Assembly: GCA_023129075.1 (NCBI GenBank)
Contig: JAGMCT010000023.1
Span: forward strand, 811 to 64,810
DNA length: 64,000 nucleotides
Direction of reading: 5' to 3'
Source of the DNA: Candidatus Micrarchaeota archaeon
Lineage (GTDB): Archaea; Micrarchaeota; Micrarchaeia; Anstonellales; Bilamarchaeaceae
Of the stretch, positions 5,106-60,820 are shown in pieces (position 1 is the stretch's first letter; each line of letters opens with the position of its first letter). The notes below the pieces were generated by a model. It did not search any database and was not told the origin of the DNA. It saw only the letters and a program-made list of their open reading frames with translations. Both the position numbers and the translations under genes were made by a program.

Positions 5106-5768
5106 ATGCGTTTTGTGTTTATTATGGTTTTGATTTTATGTATTGCCAATGCAGCCAATATACATGGAGAAGTATATGCAATAGATGGATTTGATAATCT
5201 AAACAACAGCATCATAAAAATAAGCGGAGAAGAGAACCATCAGCTGATGGTTAAAGAAGGGAACTACTCAATTGAGTTAAGAGAGGGGGAGTATGTTATT
5301 GAAGGTTTTTATTATGAAGAAGAGGAGCTTATTTATTATGCAAAATATGAATTGGAAGTTGGGGGTGAACCTCTAAGGTTTGATGTTGTTTTGTTTTCTG
5401 CGGAGATATTTGAGTATATTCCAACCATTTATATTGATGAAATTGAGTTGGATGAATTAGAAATAGAAGAGGAAACGGACTTTACATATGTGTGGGTTGG
5501 AATTGGAATCATTCTTATCTTATTTATTGTTCTGCTCCTGTTCAGAACCAAAAAGAAGAAAGCAAAACCCGAGGAATTGGACGAGGATTGTAAAACCGTG
5601 CTAAGGATTGTAAATGAGAATGAGGGGAGGATTACACAAAAGGAAATACGGGAGATATTAAACTGGTCGGACAGTAAACTAAGTCTGGTTGTAAGTGAGC
5701 TTGAACAATTAGAATTAATAAAAAGAATAAAAAAGGGAAGGAAGAATATAATTAAGGTGAGAAGATGA
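5106..5768 (+). CDS. membrane-anchored winged-helix transcriptional regulator
   Basis: Signal peptide, extracytoplasmic beta-rich domain, one TM helix (WVGIGIILILFIVLLLF), then a cytoplasmic wHTH (TVLRIVNENEGRITQKEIREILNWSDSKLSLVVSELEQLELIKR). Overlaps purP by 4 bp (ATGA). Confidence 0.55.
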   Translation: MRFVFIMVLILCIANAANIHGEVYAIDGFDNLNNSIIKISGEENHQLMVKEGNYSIELREGEYVIEGFYYEEEELIYYAKYELEVGGEPLRFDVVLFSAEIFEYIPTIYIDEIELDELEIEEETDFTYVWVGIGIILILFIVLLLFRTKKKKAKPEELDEDCKTVLRIVNENEGRITQKEIREILNWSDSKLSLVVSELEQLELIKRIKKGRKNIIKVRR

Positions 5769-6841
5769 AAATTTCTACTTTGGGAAGTCATTCTGCTTTG
5801 GATGTGAGTGAAGGGGCAAAAAAAGAAGGGTTTGGAACGCTTGTGGTGTGCAAAAAAGGAAGGGAAAGAACCTATGCAAAGCACTACAAAACCAGGGAAG
5901 TGAAAGGGGAAACCCTTGGGGTAGTTGATGAAATAATATTATTGGATGAATTTAGGGATATGGTAAAGGAAGAGGTGCAGGAAAAACTAAAGGGTTCTGT
6001 GTTTATTCCTAATCGTTCTTTTTCCGTGTATGTAGGTTATGATAATATAGAAAAAAATTTCAAGACGCCGATTTTTGGGAACAAATATCTCTTGAGGGCA
6101 GAGGAAAGGGATGTTCCAAACAACCAGTATGATTTGCTTGAGAAGGCAGGGGTTCCGCTTGCAAGAACCTTCAAACCTGAGGAGATAGATACACTGGCTT
6201 TGGTGAAGGTGCAGGAGGCAAAAAGAAACTATGAAAGGGCATTCTTCTTTGCTTCTTCTTATGGGGAATACCAAAAAAAATCGGAGGAGTTGATTTCTAA
6301 AGGAATCATAAAAAGAGAAGATTTGGAAAAGGCAAGAATAGAAGAGTTTATTCTTGGGGCGCAGTTTAATTTCAATTTCTTTTATTCTCCTTTGAGTGGG
6401 GAACTGGAACTGCTTGGGATAGATACAAGAAGGCAGACGAACCTGGATGGATTTTTGAGACTGCCCGCGGACGTACAGCTTGAAGCATTGAAATATAGGA
6501 GGGTGACTACTATTGAGACGGGACATATCTCAGCAACCCTGAGGGAATCTTTACTGGAGAAGGTGTTTAATATTGCAGAGCCGTTTGTGGAGACTGTAAA
6601 GAAATATTATCCAAAGGGGCTGATTGGGCCGTTTGCACTGCAGGGGGCAGTTGAGGAGAAGGATGGAAAGGAAAGGATTGTAATCTTTGATGTGAGTTTT
6701 AGGATGCCGGGAAGTCCGGGGACGAGATTTACTCCTTATTCTGAATACTTATATGGAAGAAGCGTGAGTTTTGGAAGAAGGGTTGCAATAGAGATTAAGA
6801 GAGGAATAGAGGAAGACAGGTTGGAAGAGATTATTTCTTAG
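5765..6841 (+). CDS. purP: 5-formaminoimidazole-4-carboxamide ribonucleotide synthetase (archaeal PurP, ATP-grasp)
   Basis: N-terminus ISTLGSHSALDVSEGAKKEGF resembles the conserved PurP N-terminus (IATLGSHTSL...GAK.EGF); ~358 aa ATP-grasp length. Confidence 0.7.
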   Translation: MKISTLGSHSALDVSEGAKKEGFGTLVVCKKGRERTYAKHYKTREVKGETLGVVDEIILLDEFRDMVKEEVQEKLKGSVFIPNRSFSVYVGYDNIEKNFKTPIFGNKYLLRAEERDVPNNQYDLLEKAGVPLARTFKPEEIDTLALVKVQEAKRNYERAFFFASSYGEYQKKSEELISKGIIKREDLEKARIEEFILGAQFNFNFFYSPLSGELELLGIDTRRQTNLDGFLRLPADVQLEALKYRRVTTIETGHISATLRESLLEKVFNIAEPFVETVKKYYPKGLIGPFALQGAVEEKDGKERIVIFDVSFRMPGSPGTRFTPYSEYLYGRSVSFGRRVAIEIKRGIEEDRLEEIIS

Positions 6842-6848
6842 GGGTAAA

Positions 6849-7007
6849 ATGTCTAACGTTTATGAAAAAGTAAACAATGTATGGAAATCTACCTGTAAGA
6901 TATTATTCAGGCAGGAAATAGGAGATGGATTTCCAGGCACGGTTAAGGGTTTCATCTACTTCTTTTTGCATATACAGAGATTAGGAATAAAGGGTTTTAA
7001 TCCTTAG
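6849..7007 (+). pseudogene. N-terminal remnant of the A/B paralog family (decayed copy)
   Basis: Translation MSNVYEKVNNVWKSTCKILFRQEIGDGF matches the conserved family N-terminus (YEKVNNVWKSTCRIIFGEEIGEL) for ~25 aa, then diverges and stops after 52 codons. Confidence 0.6.
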
Positions 7008-8784
7008 TCTTTTTTGGTTTTTCTTTTTCTGAGATTACTTCTTCTGGTTCCTTTACACGTTTCTTTCTCCAGTGCTTAAGGTCCACAGTTTTTACCTTCA
7101 TGGGGATGGTATATCGCTCGCCATCAAAAAATCTGGCAACGCATTCCCTAACTTTAAGATTAGTAAAGATGTTCTTTTTCTCTTCCTCAAGCTCGGAGGG
7201 GGCGATTTTCTTCCTAAAGAACTCCTCAACCTTCATGTCCATGATAGAACTGATATAACCTGCATCCTGCTTGCTCAGGCGGAATGCAACTACATTGTAA
7301 ACATTCGTAAGAATACTATCAAGGATTTCCTTTTGTATCTGCCCTAAATACTGAAGAGAAAGACAGAGAGAAAGATTGAACTTTCTGGTTTCAGAGAGAA
7401 TGTCCTTTACAACAAGGGTTTCAACAACCGGAAACTCATCAATAATAAGAATCGTGGGCTGATTGAGTTTGTGGGTAATTGCAAAGATATACATCTGCTG
7501 AATGATGGCTCCTGCAAGGAACTTAATCATTCTTCTGCCGAAGAAATGGGGGTCAAAGGAAATTATAGTAACGTCGTTTTTCTCTATAAGATCCATAAGA
7601 CGAACAACGTTCTTGTCCTTTCCTATATAAAGCTCATATTCGCTGACAAAGTTAAGGATTGGCAGAACAGCATCGTTGAAATGATGCAGATAGATATCAT
7701 CAAACTCAACGCTGAAGAACCTTTTTACTTCGTCGTTTTCAACCATACTGGCAAATTCCATCCTTTTTGAGGAATCAGTAAGCAATAGGTTTATGTTTTC
7801 CAGGCTTAGCATATTTAGTTCTGAAAGCAGATAAACTGCATAGAAGAGGATTCGCTCAGAATACTTATTCTGTTCTCCTATGACGGAAATCATTAGCTGG
7901 ACAATGAGCTGGGTAGTCATAGGGTTCTTTTCCCTTCCTATCTCAAGCGGCTCAATATAATCATTCTTAAAGTCTACAACCTTTCCTTCAATAAGCTTGG
8001 ATAATTCATTGTGGGGGTCTATAATCACAATTTTCTGACCCTTGTGCTTGGCTGAGATTGCCTTCACAAGCATTTCAAGAAGCTTGCTCTTTCCTGTTCC
8101 TGACATGCCAACGAACAAAGAATGCTTGAATACGTCAAAGTTCTCCACTCCTATTGTAGAACCATCAATCTCAAACAGGGGTTTTTCCGAATGCATGTGC
8201 ATGGTTTTCAGGAGAGGGTGGTCCAGCATCTCCATAAAAAAGGAGGGGTTCTTCTCTAAATCAATCTCAAAGAATTTCTCTGGATTGAGAAGAAATACTG
8301 ATTTTCTCCACCCATCCTCGTTAACTGCACTCCCCCATCCAAAAAGCTTTCCAAAGATAGGAAACGTGCGTATATTCAACTGTGTGATGCGCTGTTTTAC
8401 GAGGAAATCAAAAATGTTTAAATCCTTGAAGATATACAAACCAAACGGGATTCCTCCTTTTTTTATCTCATCAGTGTGTTTGCTCTCCCCTATGGGTCTG
8501 AATGGAAATATCAATGAACCGAGCTTCTTGAGTCTATCGTAGTCTCCTTTCAGAAACACCCTTACAGTATTTGCCTTTTTAAGAAAGACCATTTCAGTAG
8601 CTCTGAAGGGGAAAACAAGGCTGAAATCAAGAAAATCAAAACCAGGAACATCCCATTTAAGGAGAGTAGTGAGGAAACGGTTCCAATCGTTTATGGATAC
8701 CTTTGGGGAATAGAGGGAAAGTTCTATGGGGTTATCTTTTTTCCAGTTAAACATTTGTATCCACTTTCTAACATTCTTTTTCAC
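6997..8784 (-). CDS. P-loop ATPase of the FtsK/HerA superfamily (HerA/VirB4-like, DUF87-type)
   Basis: 595 aa; Walker A GMSGTGKSKLL at ~aa 228 and Walker B ILIIDEFP at ~aa 445, separated by a long insertion as in HerA; N-terminal ~220-aa domain. Same strand and immediately downstream of the split A|B pair. Confidence 0.6.
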   Translation of the reverse strand: MKKNVRKWIQMFNWKKDNPIELSLYSPKVSINDWNRFLTTLLKWDVPGFDFLDFSLVFPFRATEMVFLKKANTVRVFLKGDYDRLKKLGSLIFPFRPIGESKHTDEIKKGGIPFGLYIFKDLNIFDFLVKQRITQLNIRTFPIFGKLFGWGSAVNEDGWRKSVFLLNPEKFFEIDLEKNPSFFMEMLDHPLLKTMHMHSEKPLFEIDGSTIGVENFDVFKHSLFVGMSGTGKSKLLEMLVKAISAKHKGQKIVIIDPHNELSKLIEGKVVDFKNDYIEPLEIGREKNPMTTQLIVQLMISVIGEQNKYSERILFYAVYLLSELNMLSLENINLLLTDSSKRMEFASMVENDEVKRFFSVEFDDIYLHHFNDAVLPILNFVSEYELYIGKDKNVVRLMDLIEKNDVTIISFDPHFFGRRMIKFLAGAIIQQMYIFAITHKLNQPTILIIDEFPVVETLVVKDILSETRKFNLSLCLSLQYLGQIQKEILDSILTNVYNVVAFRLSKQDAGYISSIMDMKVEEFFRKKIAPSELEEEKKNIFTNLKVRECVARFFDGERYTIPMKVKTVDLKHWRKKRVKEPEEVISEKEKPKKTKD

Positions 8785-8849
8785 TTATAATAAGGAGTAA
8801 GAATGTTTTTAAATATATGCTTATTTACATAGAAAAACATAAAAAACAC

Positions 8850-9623
8850 CTATACCGTCTGTTCACTGCTGGTATTGAATATATCCGTCTCAAAACCCCC
8901 TTTCTTTTCCAAGGACTTTATTATGCCATCAACAAGAATCTTTCGCACCCTTTGGTAAGCGTCCCTTCCTACTTCAACGTTTCCAACGGCATATTTGAGA
9001 TTTTTTGCGTTGGAACAAAATAAGGCATCATGTACATTTTCACAGTTATGGCAGAAGTAAGCATTGGTGCTGTCTTTAACAGAATCGCATTCAAATGCAA
9101 CAGTTGCACGTACGCAATTATAGCAGTTGATGCAGAACTTTGAATAGAAAACCCGGAATGAACCGAATATGAATTCTGAGTATTTGGTGTATGAACTATA
9201 TGCTATATTCTTTGAGTTGAATGCATCGTTTGCTCTGTATGTGTTTACAGTATCCTCAAGCCCCATGGTTTCAGTATTATTCTTGTTCTTTCCAACCTGC
9301 ACATCTACATTGAAATAAGCAATTTCAGGGATTTCCTGCAGAAGTTCGTTGAGGGTCATGTTTTCCTTCAGTTCCTTGATCTTTATCTCACTTGCCTTTG
9401 TTTCTCCTTCGTAAAAGGAAACGATTTTCTCTTTTGGTATGAGCTCAAGGAATCTGTACTGCTTTATTAAACGGATATTTTCTCCGGTGAGTTTTGTTTT
9501 TATGTTTTCCCCCTCTCCAATATGTTGTCTCAGCCATCCCTCATATTCATCTAAAGGAGTGAGTTCTTTTCCGAATAGAAGTTTTGTTGTAGTTGAGAGG
9601 GCATTTTCTACTTCTTGATTCAT
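8850..9623 (-). CDS. paralog family protein, single B-type module
   Basis: 257 aa. N-terminal motif ALSTTTKLLFGKELTPLDEYEGWL; C-terminal Cys-rich block CINCYNCVRATVAFECDS...YFCHNCENVHDALFCSNAKNLKYAVGN. Overlaps the upstream A-module gene by 4 bp. Confidence 0.7.
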   Translation of the reverse strand: MNQEVENALSTTTKLLFGKELTPLDEYEGWLRQHIGEGENIKTKLTGENIRLIKQYRFLELIPKEKIVSFYEGETKASEIKIKELKENMTLNELLQEIPEIAYFNVDVQVGKNKNNTETMGLEDTVNTYRANDAFNSKNIAYSSYTKYSEFIFGSFRVFYSKFCINCYNCVRATVAFECDSVKDSTNAYFCHNCENVHDALFCSNAKNLKYAVGNVEVGRDAYQRVRKILVDGIIKSLEKKGGFETDIFNTSSEQTV

Positions 9624-10375
9624 GGTTGAACCCCCTTGGCTATTTTAAATATTGTTGGAAATGACTTTTTCTTCTGCATTATCTCTGCCACTTCTTCCAA
9701 AAGCTTTTCCTTTAAGGAAAGGTATTTCTCTCTTTGGAGCTCTATGTTCCCTATCATATGTTGTTTATTCTTCTGATTAAATGAAAATAGGCACTCCCTG
9801 CAGTTACCCATATGCCAGCTGAAGTACAAGTCCGATGAGGAATTTGAATAACCTGTCTGGAAAAGCCTTGTTGACCTATAATTATGGTACCCCCTTATTA
9901 TTGAATTTGTAAAGGCCGAATAGGTTGAACCAAATATGAATTTTGAACTTAGTAAGATGTTAGAATATGCTGCATACTGAGAATCATAAATAGCATTTGA
10001 TTCAAATACAAAACCAGCATCCATAGACCCATCCGATGCATTAACTTCTATGCACCTCCCAAGATTTTTGTCTCCGCAGTAGAAAAAAGTATCCTTTATG
10101 CAATCAAGCAGGGAATCAATATCTTTTATGGCATTTATATCGAGGGTCGGCTTCTTGAGTCTTTCCAATTCCGCATAAGAAATAAATCTTCCTTCTTTAG
10201 GATATTCAGAATAGTACAAGTAGATGTCTTTTCCCGAGATTGAGGAGGTTCTTTTTGTAATGGGTTCTGCTGTGGACGTTAGATATGTTTTGAACTCCTC
10301 CAGACTTCCGAGCTCTTGTTTGAATAAAGTTCTGCACGTTGAGCGAAATGCAGAATCCAATTTCTGGTTGAACAT
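9620..10375 (-). CDS. paralog family protein, single A-type module
   Basis: 251 aa with the A-module motifs FRSTCRTLFKQELGSLEEFKTYL, SGKDIY, IKDIDSLLD, YAAYSN, SSSDLYFSWHMGNCRECLFSFNQKNKQHMIGNIEL and KLLEEV. Confidence 0.7.
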   Translation of the reverse strand: MFNQKLDSAFRSTCRTLFKQELGSLEEFKTYLTSTAEPITKRTSSISGKDIYLYYSEYPKEGRFISYAELERLKKPTLDINAIKDIDSLLDCIKDTFFYCGDKNLGRCIEVNASDGSMDAGFVFESNAIYDSQYAAYSNILLSSKFIFGSTYSAFTNSIIRGYHNYRSTRLFQTGYSNSSSDLYFSWHMGNCRECLFSFNQKNKQHMIGNIELQREKYLSLKEKLLEEVAEIMQKKKSFPTIFKIAKGVQP

Positions 10376-10499
10376 ATATTAAAAGTGTGCTTAATCAGTA
10401 TTTATATTAAAGTAGTTCAGTAACTGGACTAAAAACTAGGGATTGTTTAGAGTATCATGCTGAACAGAGATATTTAAACCTAGATGGGAAAAAAGAACC

Positions 10500-12080
10500 A
10501 TGCAGAATTCTATTGCATACAATAAGATAAACGAAGCCTGGAAGGATTCCTGCAGGGTTATCTTTGGAAAAGAATTGGGGGATTTGAAGGAATACAAGGA
10601 ATGGCTTTCCATGGACATGGAATCCATGAATACAAAAAAATCAATGGTTTCAGGTAAAGATGTTTGCTGCGCAGTTCCCCATTATTGCGAGGGTGCCAAA
10701 TTTATCTCTCTGGATGAGGTGGACTTTAACAAAAGGTTTGAGCCGTTGAATATAAATGAGATAAAGGACATAGATTCTATTGTTGAAGCATTACAAGAGA
10801 GGTTTTATTATACTGGAAATGTTATACTGGCAAATTCAAGGTTTGTTGAGGAAAGCTCCAACATCTCCAATTCATTCTACATGTTTCATTCAAACTATGC
10901 ATCTGACTCAAAATATGCTGCATATTCATCATATCTTAGGTATTCAAAGTGCATGTTTGGTGTGAATGAAGATGCTCTGTCTTCCTTCGTAATAAGGGGG
11001 TTTGACCTTCACAGGGTGAGTAGAGGTTTTGAGGTGTGGAGAACATTTAGCTCAAATGATTGTTATTATACATATGGAGTGGAGGACTGCAACAATGTCT
11101 TATTTTCATTCAATACAAAGAGCAAGAAATACGTTATTGGAAATCTTGAATTAAGCAGAGAAAAATTCGCATCTCTCAAAAAGAAGTTGTTGGGGGAAAT
11201 AATTGATGGGTTGGAAGGAAAAAAAACGGCTCCTTCCCTAATGGATTTTATTCCAAAAGACCTGGAAAAAACCAGAGCTCCGAAAGTAGAAACCAGAATA
11301 ATGAAAAAAGATGAGAACAAGGAATTGATAGAAGAGGCGTTCAGAAGAACAACAAAGATTGTTTTTGGAAAAGAACTCACAGAGATTGATAGATATGGAG
11401 AATGGCTGGCAGAGAACATGCCCGGAGTTACAACTGTTGAATCTGCTGTAAGCGAAAGCCCTGTTTACCTAGGCTTATATGTTCCTTATACTCACTTACC
11501 CAAAGAGAGGCTGGTCAAAGAAGCAGAAAGCAAAAAACTTGGGGAGATAGTGAAGTTAGAAGAAAGTGAAATAGGTTCAATAGAAGAAATAAAGAAATCC
11601 CTGCAGAAGATTGCGTTCTTTACCCCTGAAACCAGAATGGGAGATAATGCTAACCTGATTTACGCAGCAGTAGTTGCTAGATCAGTAAACTGCTATAAAG
11701 GGGCTCTTTTTGCTTACAATGAAAATTGTGCCTTCTCGTTCTGGTCCAGGAACTCTAAATATATGTTTGGGTCAGCTTTAGCATTTTCCTCTCATTCGTG
11801 CATTAGGTGTTACAATTCTCTGAATCTGTCAAGGTGTTTTGAGACGGATGGTTCAAGCAATTCCTCTGATTTGTATTTTTGTCATAATTGTGAGAACGTG
11901 CAGAATTCTATGTTTACTTTTAATACAAAGAACTTGAAGAATGCTATCGGGAATGCTCCTCTTTCCTTGGAGGATTATAAGAAGGTTAAAGGAAACTTAT
12001 TGGAGCAGATTATAGGTGAAATAGAAGAGAAGGGATCATTAAAATGGAGTATATATAATATTGGGTGTGAAAAAGATTAG
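10500..12080 (+). CDS. paralog family protein, fused A-B two-module form
   Basis: 526 aa. The N half matches the A module (AWKDSCRVIFGKELGDLKEYKEWL...CNNVLFSFNTKSKKYVIGNLEL) and the C half the B module (CIRCYNSLNLSRCFETDGSSNSSDLYFCHNCENVQNSMFTFNTKNLKNAIGNA...KWSIYNIGC). Confidence 0.75.
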   Translation: MQNSIAYNKINEAWKDSCRVIFGKELGDLKEYKEWLSMDMESMNTKKSMVSGKDVCCAVPHYCEGAKFISLDEVDFNKRFEPLNINEIKDIDSIVEALQERFYYTGNVILANSRFVEESSNISNSFYMFHSNYASDSKYAAYSSYLRYSKCMFGVNEDALSSFVIRGFDLHRVSRGFEVWRTFSSNDCYYTYGVEDCNNVLFSFNTKSKKYVIGNLELSREKFASLKKKLLGEIIDGLEGKKTAPSLMDFIPKDLEKTRAPKVETRIMKKDENKELIEEAFRRTTKIVFGKELTEIDRYGEWLAENMPGVTTVESAVSESPVYLGLYVPYTHLPKERLVKEAESKKLGEIVKLEESEIGSIEEIKKSLQKIAFFTPETRMGDNANLIYAAVVARSVNCYKGALFAYNENCAFSFWSRNSKYMFGSALAFSSHSCIRCYNSLNLSRCFETDGSSNSSDLYFCHNCENVQNSMFTFNTKNLKNAIGNAPLSLEDYKKVKGNLLEQIIGEIEEKGSLKWSIYNIGCEKD

Positions 12081-12124
12081 TCATCTGTAAACTTTAAATA
12101 TACAATTGTATAGTAATAGTATAC

Positions 12125-13696
12125 ATGGAAGAATCGCCTCTTTATGAAAAAGTGAATAACGTATGGAAATCTACTTGTAGAATAATATTTGGAGAAGAGA
12201 TAGGAGAGCTAAAGGAATATGAGAAATGGTTGTCAGAATACAGAGAACCTTTCCTAAAGAAAAAATCAGCAATCTCGGGAAAGGATGTTTATTGCTCAAA
12301 TACTCAATATTGTGGAGATGCAAAATTCATTTCCTTAAATGAGATAGATTTTAATAAAAAGTTTGAGCCTCTGAGTATAAATGAGGTAAAGGATATTGAT
12401 AGTATTGTTGAAGGGTTGCAGGAGAGATTTCATTACTGTGGGAATATAAAACTAGGGAATTCTCAATTTGTGGAGAGGAGTAGCAATGTGTTCAATTCAA
12501 ACTATGTCTCATCGTCAACTACAATATTTGATTCCAACTACATATCAAACTCAAGCAGGATAAGAGTTTCAAAAACCCTTTTTGGATGCTATTTCGTAGG
12601 AGAAAGTAATTCAAACATAAGAATTTATTCTGGGTGGAGACTAAGTCGTTCATTTGAAAGCTATGAAGCATGCGAAGGAAACGATGTTATTTATTCAGCA
12701 AACGTTGTTGGGTGTTCCGAGTGTATGTTTTCAATAGGACTAAGAGGAAAAAAGTACGTAATAGGAAACAGAGAACTAGAAAAAGATACATATGCGAAAA
12801 TAAAAGAGAAGCTCATAGGAGAAATAAAAGATGAATTAGAGAAAGAAAAAAGAATATTCTCATTCATAGACATAATAAAAACAGCTCAAGCAGACACAAT
12901 AAGTTCTAGCGAAGAAAAAAAAGGGATTGTTGATAAAGAAACAATAGAAAAAGCATATAGAAAAACACTTTCAGTCGTGCTGCAATGTAAGACTAGTAAG
13001 AATATTGACCACTATAAAAATTTTCTAATGAAAAATGTTCCGGAATACATAGAGAAAAGAAAAAGTACTATAAGCAATAGAGGGTTTTTCACAGTTGTAG
13101 AATCACTACATAAAAAACTACCTAAGGAAGTATTTGTAGAATTCAATGAGAGTCAGGAAATGGCTAAGAACAGAAAACTAAACAATGATGATATAAAAAA
13201 TCTTGAGAGTATAATAACCAACATCAAAAAAATAGCATTTATTAATTTTGACTACAGAGACAGTAGGTCAGAAAATATGATTGAAACTCCTTCCTATCAA
13301 AATTCAAAAAACGCTTATCATGTTGCATATGCATATGGAGTAAAAAACTCTGCTTTTTCTCAATGGCCACGAAACAGTGAATACATGTTCGGTACATCAG
13401 AAACACTCCACTCATTATTTTGTATTAATTGTTACTTCTCAAGAGATTTGGCAAGAGCATTTGAAGTTGATTCTTCAAGGAAATGTTCTGATGTTTACTA
13501 TTCTCATAACTGTGAAAATGTACATGATTCTATGTTCTGTTTTAATAAGAAAAACATAAGAAATGGAATAGGAAATGCTGAGTATGGGAAGGATGAATAT
13601 CTTAGAATAAAGAGTTCATTGTTGGAACAGATTGTAAATGAGCTTGAACAGAAGGAGAATTTAAAATGGAACATCTATAATATTGGTTGTGGCTAA
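12125..13696 (+). CDS. paralog family protein, fused A-B two-module form
   Basis: 523 aa with the same A-B architecture. The N-terminal ~110 aa are near-identical to the next gene; C-terminal motifs include CINCYFSRDLARAFEVDSSRKCSDVYYSHNCENVHDSMFCFNKKNIRNGIGNA and KWNIYNIGCG. Confidence 0.75.
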   Translation: MEESPLYEKVNNVWKSTCRIIFGEEIGELKEYEKWLSEYREPFLKKKSAISGKDVYCSNTQYCGDAKFISLNEIDFNKKFEPLSINEVKDIDSIVEGLQERFHYCGNIKLGNSQFVERSSNVFNSNYVSSSTTIFDSNYISNSSRIRVSKTLFGCYFVGESNSNIRIYSGWRLSRSFESYEACEGNDVIYSANVVGCSECMFSIGLRGKKYVIGNRELEKDTYAKIKEKLIGEIKDELEKEKRIFSFIDIIKTAQADTISSSEEKKGIVDKETIEKAYRKTLSVVLQCKTSKNIDHYKNFLMKNVPEYIEKRKSTISNRGFFTVVESLHKKLPKEVFVEFNESQEMAKNRKLNNDDIKNLESIITNIKKIAFINFDYRDSRSENMIETPSYQNSKNAYHVAYAYGVKNSAFSQWPRNSEYMFGTSETLHSLFCINCYFSRDLARAFEVDSSRKCSDVYYSHNCENVHDSMFCFNKKNIRNGIGNAEYGKDEYLRIKSSLLEQIVNELEQKENLKWNIYNIGCG

Positions 13697-15256
13697 ATGA
13701 CGACTAAAGTATATGAAAAGCTAAATAATGTATGGAAATCTACATGTAGAATTATATTCGGGGATGAGATAGGAGAACTAAAGGAATATGAGAAATGGCT
13801 ATCTGAATACAGAGAACCTTTCCTAAAGAAAAAATCAGCAATCTCGGGAAAGGATGTTTATTGTTCTACGCCTCATTATTGCGAGGGTGCCAAATTTGTT
13901 TCTTTGGATGAAGTGGACTTTAACAAAAAGTTTGAGCCTCTGAGTATAAATGAGGTAAAGGATATTGATAGTATTGTTGAGGGGTTGCAGGAGAGATTTT
14001 ACTACACAGGAAATGTAACACTACAAAATTCCAAGTTTGTTGAGGGAAGTTCAGATATTATTAATTCTCATTTTGTTCTGAATTCAAACTTTATTGCTGA
14101 TTCGCAATATATTGCTTATACGTCGGAAATCAGGTTTTCTAAGTATTTATTCGGCGTTAGTTGCTGTGCTTATTTCAACAATGTAATTAGAGGGACTGGT
14201 TTTAATACCTCAAATTCTTTGGAGAGCTGGTTAACGTGGGAGTCAAACGGTTGTTATTATACAATCAATGTGAGGGGTTGTACAGATATAATGTTTTCAT
14301 TTGGTTTAACCGGAAAGAGAAACATGATTGGGAATTTACAACTGTCAAAAGAAGAATATTATAAGACAAAAGAAAAATTATTAGAACAGCTAAGAGACGA
14401 ATTAATAAAAAATAAAAGATTGCCAGGAATTTTTGAACTTGCAATAGGTGAACCTCCTAAAGTTGAGGGAATAACAAGAGGAAATGTTGAAGAAACAGAT
14501 CTTGCACCAATAGAAAATGCATTCAAAACAACAACAAAAATGATCCTAGGAAAAGAACTAGAAAACATAGATAATTACAAAGATTGGTTATTGAGAAATA
14601 CTATAGGTGTCCAAGAGATCCCTTCAGCGATAACCGGAGAACCCACCTATCTTGAAGATCTTATACCTTACACTCTTGTTCCTAAGGATAGGGTAGTGAA
14701 TGATAAAGAATCGTTTAAAGCATCTGAGATACTTAAGATAAAAGAAGTAACAGAAGATTTGAGGGAATTAAAGGAAAGATTCGGACGAATAATTTTATAT
14801 CCTGTACAAACTGAAGGACAGGAGAATAAAAATGTTACAAAAACCGCGGCAACAAGAAATTGTGTGGATTGTTATTATGGTTCCATTTATATAGAAAACG
14901 AAAAGTGCGCTTATTCATTCTGGCCTAGGAATTCAAAATACATATTTGGTTCATCAATGGCCTTCTCATCAAATTCATGTGTTAATTGTTATTCATCTTC
15001 AAACATCTCTAGATGCTTTGAGGTGGATGGTTGTAGTAATTCTGCAGGCTTGTACTTCTCCCATAATTGTGAAAATGTACATGATTCAATGTTTACTTTT
15101 AATGCAAAGAATCTAAGGTACTCAATAGGAAACGCAACTTATTCTCCAGACCAATATAACAAAATAAAATATTCCATATTAGAACAGATAACGAATGAAT
15201 TAGAAGAGAGGAAGGACTTGAAATGGAATATCTATAATATTGGTTGTGGAAAATAA
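13697..15256 (+). CDS. paralog family protein, fused A-B two-module form (mosaic copy)
   Basis: 519 aa with A-B architecture. DNA stretches of 50+ nt are identical to the 12125 copy, and others nearly identical to the 10500 copy (e.g. cattattgcgagggtgccaaatt...gtggactttaacaaaa), indicating gene conversion. Confidence 0.75.
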   Translation: MTTKVYEKLNNVWKSTCRIIFGDEIGELKEYEKWLSEYREPFLKKKSAISGKDVYCSTPHYCEGAKFVSLDEVDFNKKFEPLSINEVKDIDSIVEGLQERFYYTGNVTLQNSKFVEGSSDIINSHFVLNSNFIADSQYIAYTSEIRFSKYLFGVSCCAYFNNVIRGTGFNTSNSLESWLTWESNGCYYTINVRGCTDIMFSFGLTGKRNMIGNLQLSKEEYYKTKEKLLEQLRDELIKNKRLPGIFELAIGEPPKVEGITRGNVEETDLAPIENAFKTTTKMILGKELENIDNYKDWLLRNTIGVQEIPSAITGEPTYLEDLIPYTLVPKDRVVNDKESFKASEILKIKEVTEDLRELKERFGRIILYPVQTEGQENKNVTKTAATRNCVDCYYGSIYIENEKCAYSFWPRNSKYIFGSSMAFSSNSCVNCYSSSNISRCFEVDGCSNSAGLYFSHNCENVHDSMFTFNAKNLRYSIGNATYSPDQYNKIKYSILEQITNELEERKDLKWNIYNIGCGK

Positions 15257-15259
15257 TAA

Positions 15260-16870
15260 TCACTTGCATCCAATATTGTAAATATCGTATTTTAAGGTTT
15301 TGTTCTTTTCCAATTCTGAGGAGATTTGCTCTAGTAAAGAGGACTTTATTTTTCTATATTCATCAGGAGAAAGTTTGGAATTGCCGATTGCATGCTTCAG
15401 ATTTTTTACATTGAAGCAGAACATTCCATCCTGAACTGCTTCGCAATTGTGAGAAAAGTAGATGTCTGAACAGTCCCTAGAGCTGTCAACCTCAAAACAT
15501 CTGGAAAGTTTGCTTGAATTATATACATTTATGCAAAATAAAGAGTCATGAACCGTATCAACACCAAACATATTCTCAGATCTTACCGGCCAAAAGGAAT
15601 ACCCGCAGTTTTTTGCACGTAGTGGCGCTCCACACCTATAACTGTTGCTTGAATAGCCCACCATCACACATTCTGGAATATTTGAGTTCTGCAATTTTAG
15701 TTCGGTAGAAACATATCCTATATCAGCGATTATATCATGTGCTTTCTCCAGCGAAAGATTATTTACGTCATTTTTATCCGCTTTAAGGTATTTGCCTGCC
15801 AATTGGCCTTCTTCTATACGAATTATCCTGTTATGCGGGAATTTGTCAAATACTGAATAATGTACAAGACCTGATTCCTTTCCTGAAATTACTGAGGGCA
15901 GTATCTCAATTGGTTTTACATGCCTGTACAGAAAATCTGAGTAATCCTCCATAGATCCGATCGGTCTGCCAAACACTACTTTGCAGGTATCCTCAAACTG
16001 GTCCTGTACAACTGAAATGTCAGTTTCAGGGTCATCATATTTAGTTTCTGCAGTAATCTTTGAAAATACATTCTTTAATTCATCAGATTTTACCCTGGAA
16101 TTGTACAGATAATCAAGCAATCCCAGGCATTTCCTATCCTTAACCAGTTTAGCTCTTATTTCTTCAAGCAAAGATTCCTTTATTTTCATGTATTGGGATT
16201 TTTCAAGTTCTAAATTGCCTATTGTGTATTTCTTATTCTTCAGATTAAATGAAAAAATACAATCCTGACAGCCGTTAATATTCATTACATAATAACAATC
16301 CGAACAGGTATGGCTTTCATAGAATTCAAAACAGCGACTGGACCATGTAGATTCCATCGCCATTATATTAAATTTGGATTCTCCTATTCCATTTCCCCCG
16401 AAAATTCTTTCGGAGGAACGCGCCATCTTGACATGGGCCATATAGATTGAATCAAGTATGTTGAGCGAATCCAGAATGAAACTTGAGTTATGTATATCCG
16501 AGCTGTCAGAAACGAATCTTGAGTTTCCAAGAATAATATTGCCCGCATACACAAATCTTTCCTGTAGTGATTCAACTAGAGAATCAATATCTTTTATTTC
16601 ATTTATGTTCAAAGGTTCAAATTTCCTGCTATAATCTATTTCGCCTAAATCCATGAATCTTGCTGAGGGGCAATAATCGCCCTGTGCCGGAAATACTGTT
16701 TTATTTGAAATATGTGATTTTTCAGACCTCATGGCACCCGGATATTCAGATAAGTAAGCTGAAAACTCATCTAATTCACCCACCTCACCTCTTAGGACAA
16801 TCCTGCAAGTGGATTTCCATTCCTTATTAAGAGAATTGTAAACTTCGGGGTTCATGGTTTTCCTCTGCAA
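15260..16870 (-). CDS. paralog family protein, fused A-B two-module form
   Basis: 536 aa with N motifs EWKSTCRIVLRGEVGELDEF and IKDIDSLVESLQERF, C motifs CINVYNSSKLSRCFEVDSSRDCSDIYFSHNCEAVQDGMFCFNVKNLKHAIGNS and KYDIYNIGCK. Co-oriented with the upstream methyltransferase-like gene. Confidence 0.75.
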   Translation of the reverse strand: MQRKTMNPEVYNSLNKEWKSTCRIVLRGEVGELDEFSAYLSEYPGAMRSEKSHISNKTVFPAQGDYCPSARFMDLGEIDYSRKFEPLNINEIKDIDSLVESLQERFVYAGNIILGNSRFVSDSSDIHNSSFILDSLNILDSIYMAHVKMARSSERIFGGNGIGESKFNIMAMESTWSSRCFEFYESHTCSDCYYVMNINGCQDCIFSFNLKNKKYTIGNLELEKSQYMKIKESLLEEIRAKLVKDRKCLGLLDYLYNSRVKSDELKNVFSKITAETKYDDPETDISVVQDQFEDTCKVVFGRPIGSMEDYSDFLYRHVKPIEILPSVISGKESGLVHYSVFDKFPHNRIIRIEEGQLAGKYLKADKNDVNNLSLEKAHDIIADIGYVSTELKLQNSNIPECVMVGYSSNSYRCGAPLRAKNCGYSFWPVRSENMFGVDTVHDSLFCINVYNSSKLSRCFEVDSSRDCSDIYFSHNCEAVQDGMFCFNVKNLKHAIGNSKLSPDEYRKIKSSLLEQISSELEKNKTLKYDIYNIGCK

Positions 16871-16936
16871 CCGATATTGTAAATATCATATTTTAAGGTC
16901 TTGTTTTTTTCTAATTCTATATGGGGGAACTGAATA

Positions 16937-17683
16937 TTAACCATTATTCTTTGCTACAAGAATTAATCTTTTGTTTTTTTGATGTTTCTTATCTGGTGAG
17001 TCAAACGTTTCTTTTTCTATTATTTTATATCCTATTTCTCTAATAGTTTTAAGTATTTCAGGTATGCTTTTAGGTCTTCTATCCGAAAAGAAAGCTGGCA
17101 GACCGTAATCAACAACATTATTAATGAAAATTAAACCATCTTTCTTGATAAATTCTTTAAGTACCATCAAAAATAGCTTGTAATCGATGTAATTAAGAAC
17201 ATGTGAAACAACAACAGAATCAAAAGAAATTTTCTTCAAATGCAATTTTTTGAAGGCTTTTTGTGTTTCCAATTTAAGTTTCAGGAAAGAATTTCCTTCA
17301 ATTTGATTTAAATCACAAAATATGGGGTAAACAGAATCTTTCTTATATTTGTTATTATGGTACTTCAAAACATGGTAATCATTTTCCCAGTAAAAAATTT
17401 GGGAATTAGGGAATTCTTCCGGAGTGACCAAAGGGTTAAAGAAAGGCCCAACTTCAAGAATAATATTCCCCATGTTTTTCCTATATTTTTTTAGAAATGG
17501 TGAAAGCATCTGGCTGCCAGTTATCATTCTTTTTCTTGCTTCAATATCAAAATCCCCTCCATGGGGATTCTCTTCTAACGGCCAACCAGGCCAGTTGTAA
17601 ATTTTGAAATCATCCATGGATAGAACTAAACAAATCTGATATATAAAAGTTTCGGGATATTGAAGAGAGTCAAGTGAAACCAA
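16937..17683 (-). CDS. class I SAM-methyltransferase-like protein with a degenerate motif I
   Basis: 248 aa. ILEVGPFFNP aligns with MTase motif I (hhDhGxGxG) but lacks the glycines; FDSVVVSHVLNYI matches the post-II/III acidic motif of class I MTases. Confidence 0.4.
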   Translation of the reverse strand: MVSLDSLQYPETFIYQICLVLSMDDFKIYNWPGWPLEENPHGGDFDIEARKRMITGSQMLSPFLKKYRKNMGNIILEVGPFFNPLVTPEEFPNSQIFYWENDYHVLKYHNNKYKKDSVYPIFCDLNQIEGNSFLKLKLETQKAFKKLHLKKISFDSVVVSHVLNYIDYKLFLMVLKEFIKKDGLIFINNVVDYGLPAFFSDRRPKSIPEILKTIREIGYKIIEKETFDSPDKKHQKNKRLILVAKNNG

Positions 17684-17726
17684 TCATTAAAACCGTTTCG
17701 TTCTACAATTCCGACAGGTGTGTTAA

Positions 17727-19598
17727 ATGAAAGAATTAATCATTCATGCAGATAAGGTTTCTTATGAAGTAACAAAGAAAACAGGGGTGGCCGAAGAAAT
17801 TCCAAAGGAGATGGAAAAGGGAGAAATGGAGGAAGTGCTCTGGCTGAGGATAGCAGTGGAAAAGGACGATGAGGGAAAAATAGAGAATTTAGTGAGGAAG
17901 GCAGTGGAGGATGTAAAAAAAGTGGCAGAACAAGTGAAAGTGAAGAATGTGATGATTTATCCTTATGCACATCTTTTGTTTGGGTCAAAACCTTCTGACC
18001 CGAAAACAGCCCTGAATCTTCTGAAGGGGATTGAAGAGGAGCTTAAGAAAGAAGGATTTGAAGTAATGAGGGCTCCTTTTGGGTGGTACAAAAAATTTAC
18101 TGTGGTTGCAAAGGGGCATCCTCTGAGTGAATTGTCAAGGGTTTTTCATGGAGAAGAAAGTGAAGAAAGGGATGAGGTTTCTGCATCAGTGAAAGCTGAG
18201 GAAGAGCTCAAGAGTAGATTTTATATATTAACCCCTGAGGGGGAGCTTGTGGAAGCTGAGAAATATGATTATAAAGGGCGAGAAGGGCTCAGGAAACTAA
18301 TGAGCTATGAGACTAAGAAAATGAGGGCGTATGAAAAAGAGCCGCCGCACATAAAAATCATGCAGGAACAGGAGCTTGTAGATTATGAGCCGGGAAGCGA
18401 TGCGGGAAATTTCAGGTTTTATCCAAAGGGAAGGCTGATAAAGAAATTATTGGAGGAATCAATAACAGACTTTTGTATAGATTTGGGGGCAATGGAGGTG
18501 GAGACCCCTTTGATGTATGATTTTGAACATCCTTCTCTGAAGAAGTATTTGAATAGGTTTCCTGCAAGACAGTATGTGGTGCTGAGCGAGGATAAGAGAT
18601 TCTTTCTGAGGTTTGCGGCATGTTTTGGGCAGTTTTTAATGAATCATGATATGGTAATGAGCTACAGGCACCTGCCCCTAAAAATGTATGAATTGGCAAG
18701 GTACTCTTTCAGAAGGGAGCAGACTGGGGAGCTCGCAGGGCTTAAGAGGCTTAGGGCGTTTACCATGCCGGATATGCATACTCTTGCAAGAGATATGGAG
18801 ATGGCAAAAAAAGAGTTTGAAAAACAGCTGGAAGCAGGAATAGAATGGCTGGGCGGAACCGGACTCTATGAAGGAATAGAAACCGCATTCAGGGTGCAGA
18901 GTGATTTTTACGAAGAGAATAAGGAATGGTATAGGGAAATGGTAAAAAAATTGGGAAAACCTGTGCTTGTTGAGTTGTTTGATGAGAGGTATGCTTATTT
19001 TATTACGAAATTTGAGTTTAATTTTATAGATACGATGGACAAAGCGAGTGCATTAACTACGGTGCAGATAGATGTAGAGAATGCAGAAACCTATGACATT
19101 AATTTTGTAGAGGAGAACGGAGAGAAGAAAAGGCCGTTGATATTGCATGCATCCATAAGCGGGGGCATAGAAAGGGTAATTTATGCACTTTTGGAAAACG
19201 AGGCAGGGAAGATGAAGAAAGGGAAAAAAGCGATGCTTCCTGTGTGGCTCTCCCCCACCCAAATAAGGGTAATTCCCATCTCAAGAAATCAGCTGGAGTA
19301 TGCAAAGAAGGTTGCTGAGGGGTTAAAGGAATTTAGGGTTGATGTGGATGATAGGGATGAGAGCTTGGGAAAAAGGATAAGGGCGGCTGAGAAAGAATGG
19401 ATTCCCTATGTGATTGTTGTTGGGGAGAAAGAAGAGAAAGAGAAAAAAATTGCTGTTACCATAAGAGAAACACAGAATAAAAAGGAGATGAATGTAGAAG
19501 AGATTGAAAAGGAAATAGCTGAAAAAACAAGAGATTTTCCAAAAACAAAACTTTCACTTCCTCAATTAATCTCAAAAAGACCAACATTCAGAGGTTGA
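17727..19598 (+). CDS. thrS: threonyl-tRNA synthetase (archaeal type with N-terminal editing domain)
   Basis: 623 aa; class II aaRS core motifs (FRREQTGE, RLRAFTMPDMH, HASISGGIERVIYALLE), a C-terminal anticodon-binding domain and an archaeal-type N-terminal domain. Confidence 0.85.
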   Translation: MKELIIHADKVSYEVTKKTGVAEEIPKEMEKGEMEEVLWLRIAVEKDDEGKIENLVRKAVEDVKKVAEQVKVKNVMIYPYAHLLFGSKPSDPKTALNLLKGIEEELKKEGFEVMRAPFGWYKKFTVVAKGHPLSELSRVFHGEESEERDEVSASVKAEEELKSRFYILTPEGELVEAEKYDYKGREGLRKLMSYETKKMRAYEKEPPHIKIMQEQELVDYEPGSDAGNFRFYPKGRLIKKLLEESITDFCIDLGAMEVETPLMYDFEHPSLKKYLNRFPARQYVVLSEDKRFFLRFAACFGQFLMNHDMVMSYRHLPLKMYELARYSFRREQTGELAGLKRLRAFTMPDMHTLARDMEMAKKEFEKQLEAGIEWLGGTGLYEGIETAFRVQSDFYEENKEWYREMVKKLGKPVLVELFDERYAYFITKFEFNFIDTMDKASALTTVQIDVENAETYDINFVEENGEKKRPLILHASISGGIERVIYALLENEAGKMKKGKKAMLPVWLSPTQIRVIPISRNQLEYAKKVAEGLKEFRVDVDDRDESLGKRIRAAEKEWIPYVIVVGEKEEKEKKIAVTIRETQNKKEMNVEEIEKEIAEKTRDFPKTKLSLPQLISKRPTFRG

Positions 19599-28553: not shown

Positions 28554-28626
28554 TGAGCCCGGGAGGATTTGAACCCCCGATTCCCACCGTGTGAGGGTGG
28601 TGTCTTAACCGCTCGACTACGGGCTC
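28554..28626 (-). tRNA. tRNA-Val (anticodon CAC)
   Basis: Reverse complement GAGCCCGTAGTCGAGCGGTTAAGACACCACCCTCACACGGTGGGAATCGGGGGTTCAAATCCTCCCGGGCTC folds as a cloverleaf with anticodon loop CTCACAC. Confidence 0.85.
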
Positions 28627-28651: not shown

Positions 28652-28724
28652 TAGCCCTGACCGGATTCGAACCGGTGTCAACGGATCCAGAGTCCATTAT
28701 CCTTGACCACTAGACTACAGGGCT
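28652..28724 (-). tRNA. tRNA-Gln (anticodon CTG)
   Basis: Reverse complement AGCCCTGTAGTCTAGTGGTCAAGGATAATGGACTCTGGATCCGTTGACACCGGTTCGAATCCGGTCAGGGCT with anticodon loop CTCTGGA. Its 5' end overlaps the stop codon of the HAD gene. Confidence 0.85.
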
Positions 28725-29568: not shown

Positions 29569-29688
29569 CTTGTCAGCGGTCATAGGAGAGGGGAAACACC
29601 CGTTCCCTTCCCGAACACGGAAGTTAAGCCTTCTCACGGTTTTGCAAGTACTGCCCTAAGGGTGGGAACACGGACTGCTGCTGACATC
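29569..29688 (+). rRNA. 5S ribosomal RNA
   Basis: Contains the universal 5S block CCCGAACACGGAAGTTAAGCC; the terminal helix TGTCAGC…GCTGACA closes the molecule at ~120 nt; A/T-rich TATA-like sequence ~25 nt upstream. Confidence 0.85.
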
Positions 29689-29733: not shown

Positions 29734-29817
29734 GCAGGGGTAGCCAAGCGGTCAACGGCGCCAGGTTCAGGGCCTGGTCTCTTAGTGAGTTCGAGGGTTC
29801 GAATCCCTTCCCCTGCA
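29734..29817 (+). tRNA. tRNA-Leu (anticodon CAG), class II
   Basis: GCAGGGGTAGCCAAGCGGTCAACGGCGCCAGGTTCAGGGCCTGGTCTCTTAGTGAGTTCGAGGGTTCGAATCCCTTCCCCTGCA; long D-loop and long variable arm; anticodon loop TTCAGGG. Confidence 0.85.
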
Positions 29818-60714: not shown

Positions 60715-60787
60715 ATGGGAGATCGGAGATTTGAACTCCGAACACCAGCTCCCAAAGCTGGCAGCTTACCAGGTTGGCCCAATCTCC
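60715..60787 (-). tRNA. tRNA-Pro (anticodon TGG)
   Basis: Reverse complement GGGAGATTGGGCCAACCTGGTAAGCTGCCAGCTTTGGGAGCTGGTGTTCGGAGTTCAAATCTCCGATCTCCC; anticodon stem CCAGC/GCTGG, loop TTTGGGA, canonical T-arm CGGAG-TTCAAAT-CTCCG. Confidence 0.75.
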
Positions 60788-60820
60788 CTGCTTTTTCTAT
60801 AGACTTTTTATTCTAAAAGA

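Follow-up and report, generated by a model that had tools for sequence, protein, structure and literature searches.

A Micrarchaeia-specific family of paired, predicted beta-solenoid proteins genetically linked to a soluble P-loop ATPase

A stretch of 64,000 nucleotides (nt) from Candidatus Micrarchaeota archaeon (contig JAGMCT010000023.1 of assembly GCA_023129075.1, positions 811 to 64,810), termed the window throughout this paper, was analyzed with emphasis on the region 6849-17683. Six adjacent genes of this region encode a protein family built from two related modules, A and B, and stand next to the gene of a soluble P-loop ATPase. The family was found restricted to Micrarchaeia, where it is widespread and multi-copy, and its genes were found beside the ATPase gene at every informative locus. 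The A/B partner family and the architecture of the system are new, and the system fits no known kind. Within its known superfamily, the ATPase forms a new clade.

Gene family, module count and relics

At the split pair the gene order is A, B, ATPase, all on the minus strand: an A-only gene (9620-10375, 251 amino acids (aa); class A by hidden Markov model (HMM), 254 bits) overlaps a B-only gene (8850-9623, 257 aa; HMM class B, 248 bits) by 4 nt, and a gap of 65 bp separates the latter from the ATPase gene (6997-8784, 595 aa). Four A-B fusions follow, of 526 aa (10500-12080, +), 523 aa (12125-13696, +), 519 aa (13697-15256, +) and, from TTG 16870, 536 aa (15260-16870, -). The first, second and fourth of these were assigned by BLASTP and HMM. 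The 519-aa protein, which was chosen for modelling, is identical to NCBI "hypothetical protein KAW38_04870". For the fourth fusion the true start is probably ATG 16855 instead of TTG 16870, giving 531 aa, as suggested by the ATGA overlap of this codon with the stop codon of an upstream relic. Together the six family genes occupy about 12% of the 64-kb window, in which HMMs of both halves found no further members.

All-versus-all BLASTP aligned the fusions with each other over their full length at 38-51% identity (E 1e-126 to 0). Of the split proteins, A matched the N-terminal and B the C-terminal halves of the fusions, at 32-38% identity (E 1e-40 to 1e-54), and A and B modules showed a mutual identity of 22-30% (E 1e-12 to 1e-24). 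An initial annotation of this DNA had described the six genes as one family with a split A/B pair and four A-B fusions, in agreement with the coordinates and BLASTP results, and the motifs it quoted were all found in the family sequences. It had counted eight modules; the six genes actually hold ten, and two decayed relics are present besides.

The first relic, at 6849-~6930 (+) and convergent with the ATPase gene, comprises about 27 codons of the 5' end of an A module (encoding MSNVYEKVNNVWKSTCKILF...). Compared with the 12125 and 13697 genes at their 5' ends, it is 68-72% identical in aa and 75-81% in nt (nt matches at 12135-12207 and 13704-13776; tblastn 72% over 25 aa, E 1e-6), which bears out the decayed N-terminal copy beside purP that had been noticed before. 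The second relic had been overlooked. It lies at 16864-17010 (-), overlaps the 3' end of a methyltransferase-like open reading frame (ORF) and is the remnant of a lost B module, of which it keeps the 3' end (...IELEKNKTLKYDIYNIGCRGKP, followed by the stop codon). Its translation covers the last ~49 aa of such a module (...ELEKNKTLKYDIYNIGC...; tblastn 51% over 49 aa, E 4e-6), and its final 53 nt are 89% identical to 15265-15317, the 3' end of the 15260 gene. With relics at both edges, the array has therefore seen gene birth and death there.

Database and literature searches for the A/B family

The A/B modules of the window gave no match to Pfam, NCBIfam, PADLOC or PHROG, and 54 members scanned singly gave no recurrent weak match to Pfam or PADLOC. 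Likewise, searching the PDB sequences, by single protein and by profile, gave no match for the family, nor did Foldseek against the PDB for the A/B model. All named homologs are annotated "hypothetical protein". A description of the family or of its ATPase linkage was not met in the literature searched, including a term search within PMC8204110. Profile searches yielded no assignment to a characterized housekeeping family, and the earlier view of an undescribed family stands. Homology of the N-terminal domain to PADLOC PDC-S13 was considered and dismissed as chance, as a single member of the 54 matched.

Fold and conserved residues of the modules

AlphaFold2 modelling of the 519-aa fusion with a 54-sequence alignment resulted in a predicted local distance difference test score (pLDDT) of 82 and a predicted template modelling score (pTM) of 0.82. 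Each modelled module consists of N-terminal helices with a small sheet, about 110 residues of very short strands and a long C-terminal helix. Fold comparison returned solenoid proteins, with values of 5.9 for Curli CsgA, 5.5 for the ryegrass ice-binding beta-roll, 4.5 for the spruce-budworm antifreeze protein (AFP), about 4-4.7 for left-handed beta-helix (LbH) acyltransferases and 3.3 for the Tenebrio AFP. Over about nine coils, the profile columns of both modules repeat strictly every 12 residues, with a sub-period of 6 or 3 residues; small residues (C/S/A) occupy positions 2, 5, 8 and 11, and positions 12, 1 and 3 are taken by aromatic or hydrophobic ones. The Tenebrio antifreeze coil (TCTxSxxCxxAx) has this pattern of inward-facing residues. 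A regular coil repeat, an inward ladder of small residues and solenoid fold matches, as known for TmAFP, curli and the beta-roll, were all present. The model thus predicts that the middle and C-terminal part of the module is a thin beta-solenoid of 12-residue coils, in line with a suggestion made in the initial annotation. The pTM of the two-module chain also points to a defined mutual orientation of A and B.

The Zn-ribbon array proposed as an alternative failed. Cys columns contain 29-83% Cys (most of them 56-83%) with Ser as chief alternative, the exception being C202 of B with 98%. As Cys exchanges with Ser, these columns are therefore core-ladder residues and not metal ligands. Invariant CxxC pairs were not found, and a Zn-ribbon, Cys4 or Fe-S array was rejected. 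A near-invariant polar cluster was found in the last coils of B, formed by R174, E177, H191, N192, E194, C202, N204, K206 and N214 (91-100%). In A, near-invariant positions are K86, D87, D89 and S90 (KDxDS), Y101, G103, R172, E175, D184 and N212, and the H-N-x-E element of B is missing. Columns 30-140 are the most variable part of B. Past the last helix an extreme C-terminal peptide (L-K-W/Y-D/N-I-Y-N-I-G) is conserved, with I247 at 90%.

No signal peptide or transmembrane (TM) segment was detected in the A/B proteins (maximal 19-residue Kyte-Doolittle value <=1.34), so that they look cytoplasmic by hydropathy, as had been stated before. Their pI values of 5.5-8.6 are not strongly acidic, and DNA mimicry of the kind known from pentapeptide-repeat proteins is unsupported. 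A split or fused jelly-roll viral capsid with a packaging ATPase was also tried and rejected: the predicted fold is a solenoid, and relatives in PHROG or on viral contigs were not found.

Distribution, copy number and the A-B unit

A scan of one genome per GTDB species yielded 377 relatives, and the best 80 of these 377 were all in Micrarchaeota-type metagenome-assembled genomes (MAGs). Three MAGs carry the label "ainarchaeum". Their sequences are 81-86% identical (nt) to Micrarchaeia loci, and the label is therefore a naming quirk. An exhaustive profile search, counted as clusters at 50% identity, gave 347 clusters at E<=1e-30, 745 at 1e-10 and 2014 at 1e-3; distant relatives outside Micrarchaeia may be among those between E 1e-10 and 1e-3.

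Classification of 83 loci resulted in 163 A-B fusions, 40 A-only and 40 B-only genes. An A-only gene was directly followed by a co-oriented B gene in 36 of 40 cases, and 25 of these 36 pairs overlap. A is regularly followed by B, be it fused or split, and an obligate A·B unit (pseudo-heterodimer) is therefore concluded. The units of one genome are spread over several loci; a genome of about 1 Mb has at least 13 of them, and some arrays comprise 7-8 fusions. At L004/L083 (JBDRCX010000006.1) and L052/L148 (JBAZLG010000001.1) we observed 13 family genes in 20 kb, with genes for the regulators TrmB and HTH_10 in between, as well as eight or more consecutive fusions beside the ATPase gene.

Most paralogs are old. 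In 12 genomes, 46 of 65 fusions were closer to a protein of another genome than to any of their own, and most paralogs therefore represent old, maintained subfamilies. Some recent duplicates, with 69% identity, were also found. Neither relatives of the A/B family on viral contigs nor any other viral or mobile association of the family was found. The purP gene again lies nearby at L001, L009, L012 and L101. The initial annotation had spoken of an island. Since the ATPase and the arrays occur class-wide, the ATPase is about 50% identical among homologs and the purP neighbourhood recurs, the region is better described as a conserved chromosomal locus than as an inserted island.

The ATPase

The ATPase matched Pfam DUF87 (7e-9) and lay just above the cut-off of TrwB_AAD_bind. 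Matches to the NCBIfam models CedD, TraD, HerA and EccC remained far under their cut-offs, and HerA_antiphage gave 19 bits versus a cut-off of 800. Its homologs, about 50% identical, fall into 253 clusters and carry only annotations as DUF87, type IV secretion system (T4SS)-coupling-domain or HerA-domain proteins of Micrarchaeota; Walker A and Walker B are invariant among them, as in ATPases of the active type. The AlphaFold2 model (pLDDT 78.8) shows a beta-rich N-terminal domain of about 200 aa. In fold comparison the highest values were obtained for the DptH C-domain (27.7), VirB4 (27.5) and TrwB (25.2), followed by HerA (24.2), FtsK (16.7) and EccC (16.6). With a RecA-like core, Walker A and B motifs and fold similarity all present, the earlier assignment to the FtsK/HerA superfamily was supported by Pfam and fold. 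HerA as nearest relative was not, since VirB4, TrwB and DptH are at least as close. A TM segment was not found (the maximal 19-residue hydropathy of 1.5 lies within the ATPase core), and a HAS-barrel gave no Pfam match at E<=1. The protein is a soluble member of the VirB4/TrwB/DptH/HerA branch.

Most ATPase homologs carry an acidic, disordered region of 100-400 aa rich in Glu, Gly and Asp, followed by a Lys/Ala/Pro-rich, histone-H1-like basic tail; both were seen in P0122, P0196, P0219 and P0220. Such Lys/Ala/Pro-rich tails are typical of non-specific nucleic-acid binding. At L001 a canonical HerA of 511 aa (HAS-barrel plus DUF87) is encoded at 15652-17187, about 2 kb from the ATPase of the system, with which it shares only about 30% identity around the P-loop. 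A gene for such a canonical HerA with HAS-barrel was not found in the window.

Linkage of the ATPase to A/B genes

To look at the linkage from the side of the ATPase, 66 metagenome loci were fetched with the ATPase profile, and a locus counted as informative if each flank measured 3 kb or more. A family gene was found within 3 kb of the ATPase gene at 21 of 21 informative loci. Overall this was the case for 44 of the 66; the remaining loci were truncated contigs. The ATPase linkage noticed in the window is thus a feature of other genomes as well. Seen from the side of the family, 28 of 77 loci include the ATPase, which fits roughly one ATPase and many family loci per genome. On the 1.37-Mb contig Ga0209514_10000001 two ATPase copies about 80 kb apart were observed, each with family genes nearby (L089, L109).

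At L128, L147 and L117 the ATPase gene and an A gene overlap or directly adjoin (-3 to +5 nt). Family genes at the ATPase are co-oriented upstream, co-oriented downstream (some overlapping the ATPase stop codon) or convergent. In the window the ATPase gene indeed lies 65 bp downstream of the split pair in the same orientation, as the initial annotation had it; orientation differs among loci, and the co-transcription it considered is therefore not a general rule. Clustering of ORFs around the ATPase revealed only the ATPase itself and A/B as universal. Genes met repeatedly, at 10-14 of the ATPase loci, are those of helix-turn-helix (HTH) regulators and of a PALP enzyme. In this clustering no conserved membrane or channel gene was found, and NurA or Mre11/Rad50 were not met as constant neighbours.

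Proximity to the ATPase gene was reflected in the sequences of the modules. The best matches of the split A of the window are ATPase-proximal split A genes (L139, L084, L144, L089, L039), and those of its split B elsewhere are ATPase-proximal split B genes. The top match was ATPase-proximal in 58-61% for ATPase-proximal modules versus 21-30% for distal ones.

A proposed function and its alternatives

Tentatively, and with a confidence clearly below even, we propose a chromosomally inherited, Micrarchaeia-specific two-component system, in which interchangeable A·B partner modules would dock on a ring ATPase. The soluble, ring-type P-loop ATPase, from the VirB4/TrwB/DptH/HerA branch, would be one component and the repertoire of obligate A·B pseudo-heterodimers the second, each module being predicted to start with an alpha/beta domain, to continue as a very thin beta-solenoid with about nine coils of 12 residues and to close with a helix. 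The A·B units may serve as exchangeable partners or adaptors, docking via invariant surfaces (R174/E177/H191/N192/E194/C202/N204/K206/N214 in B; KDxDS, R172, E175, D184 and N212 in A), while the paralog-specific target would be set by the variable parts, chiefly the N-terminal domain and first coils of B. The ATPase could then use ATP to translocate or remodel a polymer in the cytoplasm, with DNA as the most plausible candidate. As judged from sequence, docking, the division into common and specificity surfaces and the nature of the substrate are all putative. We favor this reading because the parts are soluble, a channel gene is not linked, the paralogs are ancient, and related ring motors are bound by partners: the closest ATPase structures (DptH, VirB4, TrwB, HerA-NurA, HerA-DUF, TdpA) work with partners on DNA or other substrates.

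Several observations weigh against this proposal. Linkage of genes alone is not proof of a complex, the orientation at the ATPase is variable and often convergent, and many family loci are distant from it. The ATPase of the window has a short basic tail only (...KKRVKEPEEVISEKEKPKKTKD), the long one being missing. Surface positions of the conserved residues were deduced from the 12-residue register and not from a structure, and parts of the solenoids reached a pLDDT of only about 60-70. Catalysis or metal binding, instead of docking, could be the function of the near-invariant H/C/E/N/K patch. B would then itself be the enzyme, for example a metal-dependent one or a hydrolase of the Cys/His/Glu type, with A as its degenerate counterpart and the ATPase as no more than a conserved neighbour. 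The conservation of H191 (96%), C202 (98%) and E177/E194/N192/N204/K206/N214 (97-100%) and the H-N-x-E element restricted to B agree with this idea, as do the family loci apart from the ATPase. An enzyme-family similarity was found neither in sequence nor in fold, however, and the 21 of 21 linkage and the overlaps of ATPase and A genes are hard to attribute to chance, so that we consider such an enzyme very unlikely.

The ratio of one ATPase to 5-13 or more A·B units would also suit a motor and its substrates. By analogy to type VII secretion (EccC with tandem EsxA/B or PE/PPE pairs) or to VirD4 and its effectors, A·B dimers might be clients of the ATPase, recognized for example via their C-terminal peptide and passed on to the envelope or a host contact, or across it. 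A single ATPase with many tandem, heterodimeric paralogs without signal peptides would be expected in this case, and the peptide conserved past the last helix could be the signal. Micrarchaeia moreover belong to the DPANN archaea, many of which are episymbionts (PMC8975820). Nevertheless, the ATPase lacks the TM segment of VirD4, EccC and FtsK, a membrane or channel gene is not conserved nearby, the paralogs are kept as orthologous subfamilies and not as lineage-specific effector sets, and the near-invariant polar patch suggests a shared biochemical role inside the cell. We regard such a client relationship as unlikely. Its stricter form, in which the dimers are signal-peptide-less cargo delivered by a VirB4/TrwB-like ATPase to the envelope or to host cells, appears more doubtful still; if true, it would be the first dedicated effector-delivery system described in DPANN, convergent with substrate pairs of type VII secretion systems (T7SS) and T4SS.

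Defence against viruses or plasmids, with an ATPase of the HerA/DptH type and A·B units as effectors or sensors whose paralogs meet different invaders, had been suggested by analogy in the initial annotation. The best PADLOC match of the ATPase is mad8 (3.5e-14), next to weaker HerA models. Paralog expansion, fusion and fission, and birth and death of genes, with two relics here and duplicates at 69% identity elsewhere, are in agreement with it. The GC content of the paralog array (12001-18000) is 0.32-0.35, below that of its surroundings (~0.39; ~0.38-0.40 in most of the window), which may reflect the Ser/Asn/Lys-rich composition of the family instead of foreign origin. Defence systems are typically patchy and mobile. 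The system described here was present on every long Micrarchaeia contig examined, beside housekeeping genes and with recurrent purP synteny, and relatives on viral contigs were not found. Moreover, PADLOC holds no model for the modules apart from the chance match mentioned, the ATPase matches only via its generic core, a search for known effector domains such as nuclease, Sir2 or TIR gave none, and the paralogs for the most part belong to ancient subfamilies. Nothing supports the analogy directly, and defence is quite an improbable function, about as doubtful as delivery to host cells.

A structural role was considered as well. Capped solenoid dimers might form a cytoplasmic scaffold or a cytoskeletal or nucleoid lattice, comparable to bactofilin or curli, which the ATPase would assemble or remodel. 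The 12-residue ladder offers flat, repetitive faces, and the high gene dosage suggests abundance. However, the predicted solenoid is capped at both ends, by the N-terminal domain and by the C-terminal helix, and such caps normally prevent end-to-end polymerization. A Pfam bactofilin or curlin match was not obtained, and near-invariant charged and polar residues are unusual in a purely structural repeat. We consider the scaffold the least probable of these explanations.

Comparison with known systems

The complexes HerA-NurA, HerA-Sir2 "Nezha" and HerA-DUF4297 differ from the present system, in which a HAS-barrel match is missing from the ATPase and the partner is an unrelated solenoid family, with many partner paralogs per ATPase and a class-wide instead of a patchy distribution. 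Compared to VirB4/VirD4 proteins (TrwB, DotL, Cag-beta), N-terminal TM helices are lacking, and no T4SS or relaxase genes lie nearby; compared to the phosphorothioate-dependent restriction of DptH/DndH, no Dnd or Dpt genes do. Sequence similarity of the ATPase to VirB4, VirD4 and DptH is limited to the P-loop region. In contrast to EccC/EssC of Type VII systems, there is a single ATPase domain without TM region and without membrane components. While EsxA/EsxB and PE/PPE pairs are helical hairpins, the partners described here are predicted solenoid modules of 250 aa. The Tenebrio molitor AFP has a TxT ice-binding face and an obligatory disulfide ladder; in A/B, positions 1, 3 and 12 are aromatic or hydrophobic, and Cys is often Ser. 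Furthermore, the A/B proteins are cytoplasmic by prediction, carry extra flanking domains, are paired as A·B and share no sequence homology with the AFP.

Micrarchaeia genomes of about 1 Mb have nevertheless retained 5-13 or more units of about 1.6 kb each and a dedicated, conserved ATPase, and such retention points to a major, unrecognized piece of Micrarchaeia cell biology. With this family, the range of known protein architectures gains a paired beta-solenoid with predicted 12-residue coils that is probably cytoplasmic, and the VirB4/TrwB/DptH/HerA branch gains a new class of partner. Its function could bear on genome maintenance or on host interaction of these reduced, often host-dependent archaea. 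The split A/B pair and the ATPase of the window form a compact set of three genes fit for heterologous expression and cryo-electron microscopy (cryo-EM).

The methyltransferase-like gene and other features of the window

The methyltransferase-like ORF at 16937-17683 (-) lies outside the A/B-ATPase system. The gene probably encodes 226 aa (16937-17617), matching the public annotation. The initial annotation had counted it to the region as a co-oriented neighbour of the last fusion. It was absent from all 149 other family or ATPase loci, and a methyltransferase near the system at L001 is unrelated to it. Homologs with 56-74% identity were found in bacteria of the candidate phyla radiation (CPR; Komeilibacteria, Kerfeldbacteria), Woesearchaeota and Diapherotrites; farther ones (<=44%) include one cyanobacterium. 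The genomic contexts of two homologs were unrelated to each other and to this locus. A role as system component was rejected on these grounds. Its overlap with the relic left by a vanished family copy makes a later acquisition the best interpretation.

Its assignment as a methyltransferase is weak in sequence terms. The family profile matched KsgA/Dim1 at E 4.5e-4, 15 of 15 weak PDB matches were methyltransferases, and the single-sequence Pfam match had an E of 0.037. Motif I reads LEVGPFFNPL and not GxGxG, and a Pfam domain was not found in the homologs. Two homologs carry a fused N-terminal TIR domain of the ThsB type. Together with the distribution of the family, this hints at horizontal spread among ultra-small prokaryotes and possibly at a defence-related role.

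The region is flanked by purP (5765-6841, +) and thrS (17727-19598, +). Elsewhere in the window a 5S rRNA gene was located at 29572-29686 (+), surrounded by tRNA genes at 28554-28626 (-), 28652-28724 (-) and 29734-29817 (+). A further tRNA gene lies at 60716-60788 (-).

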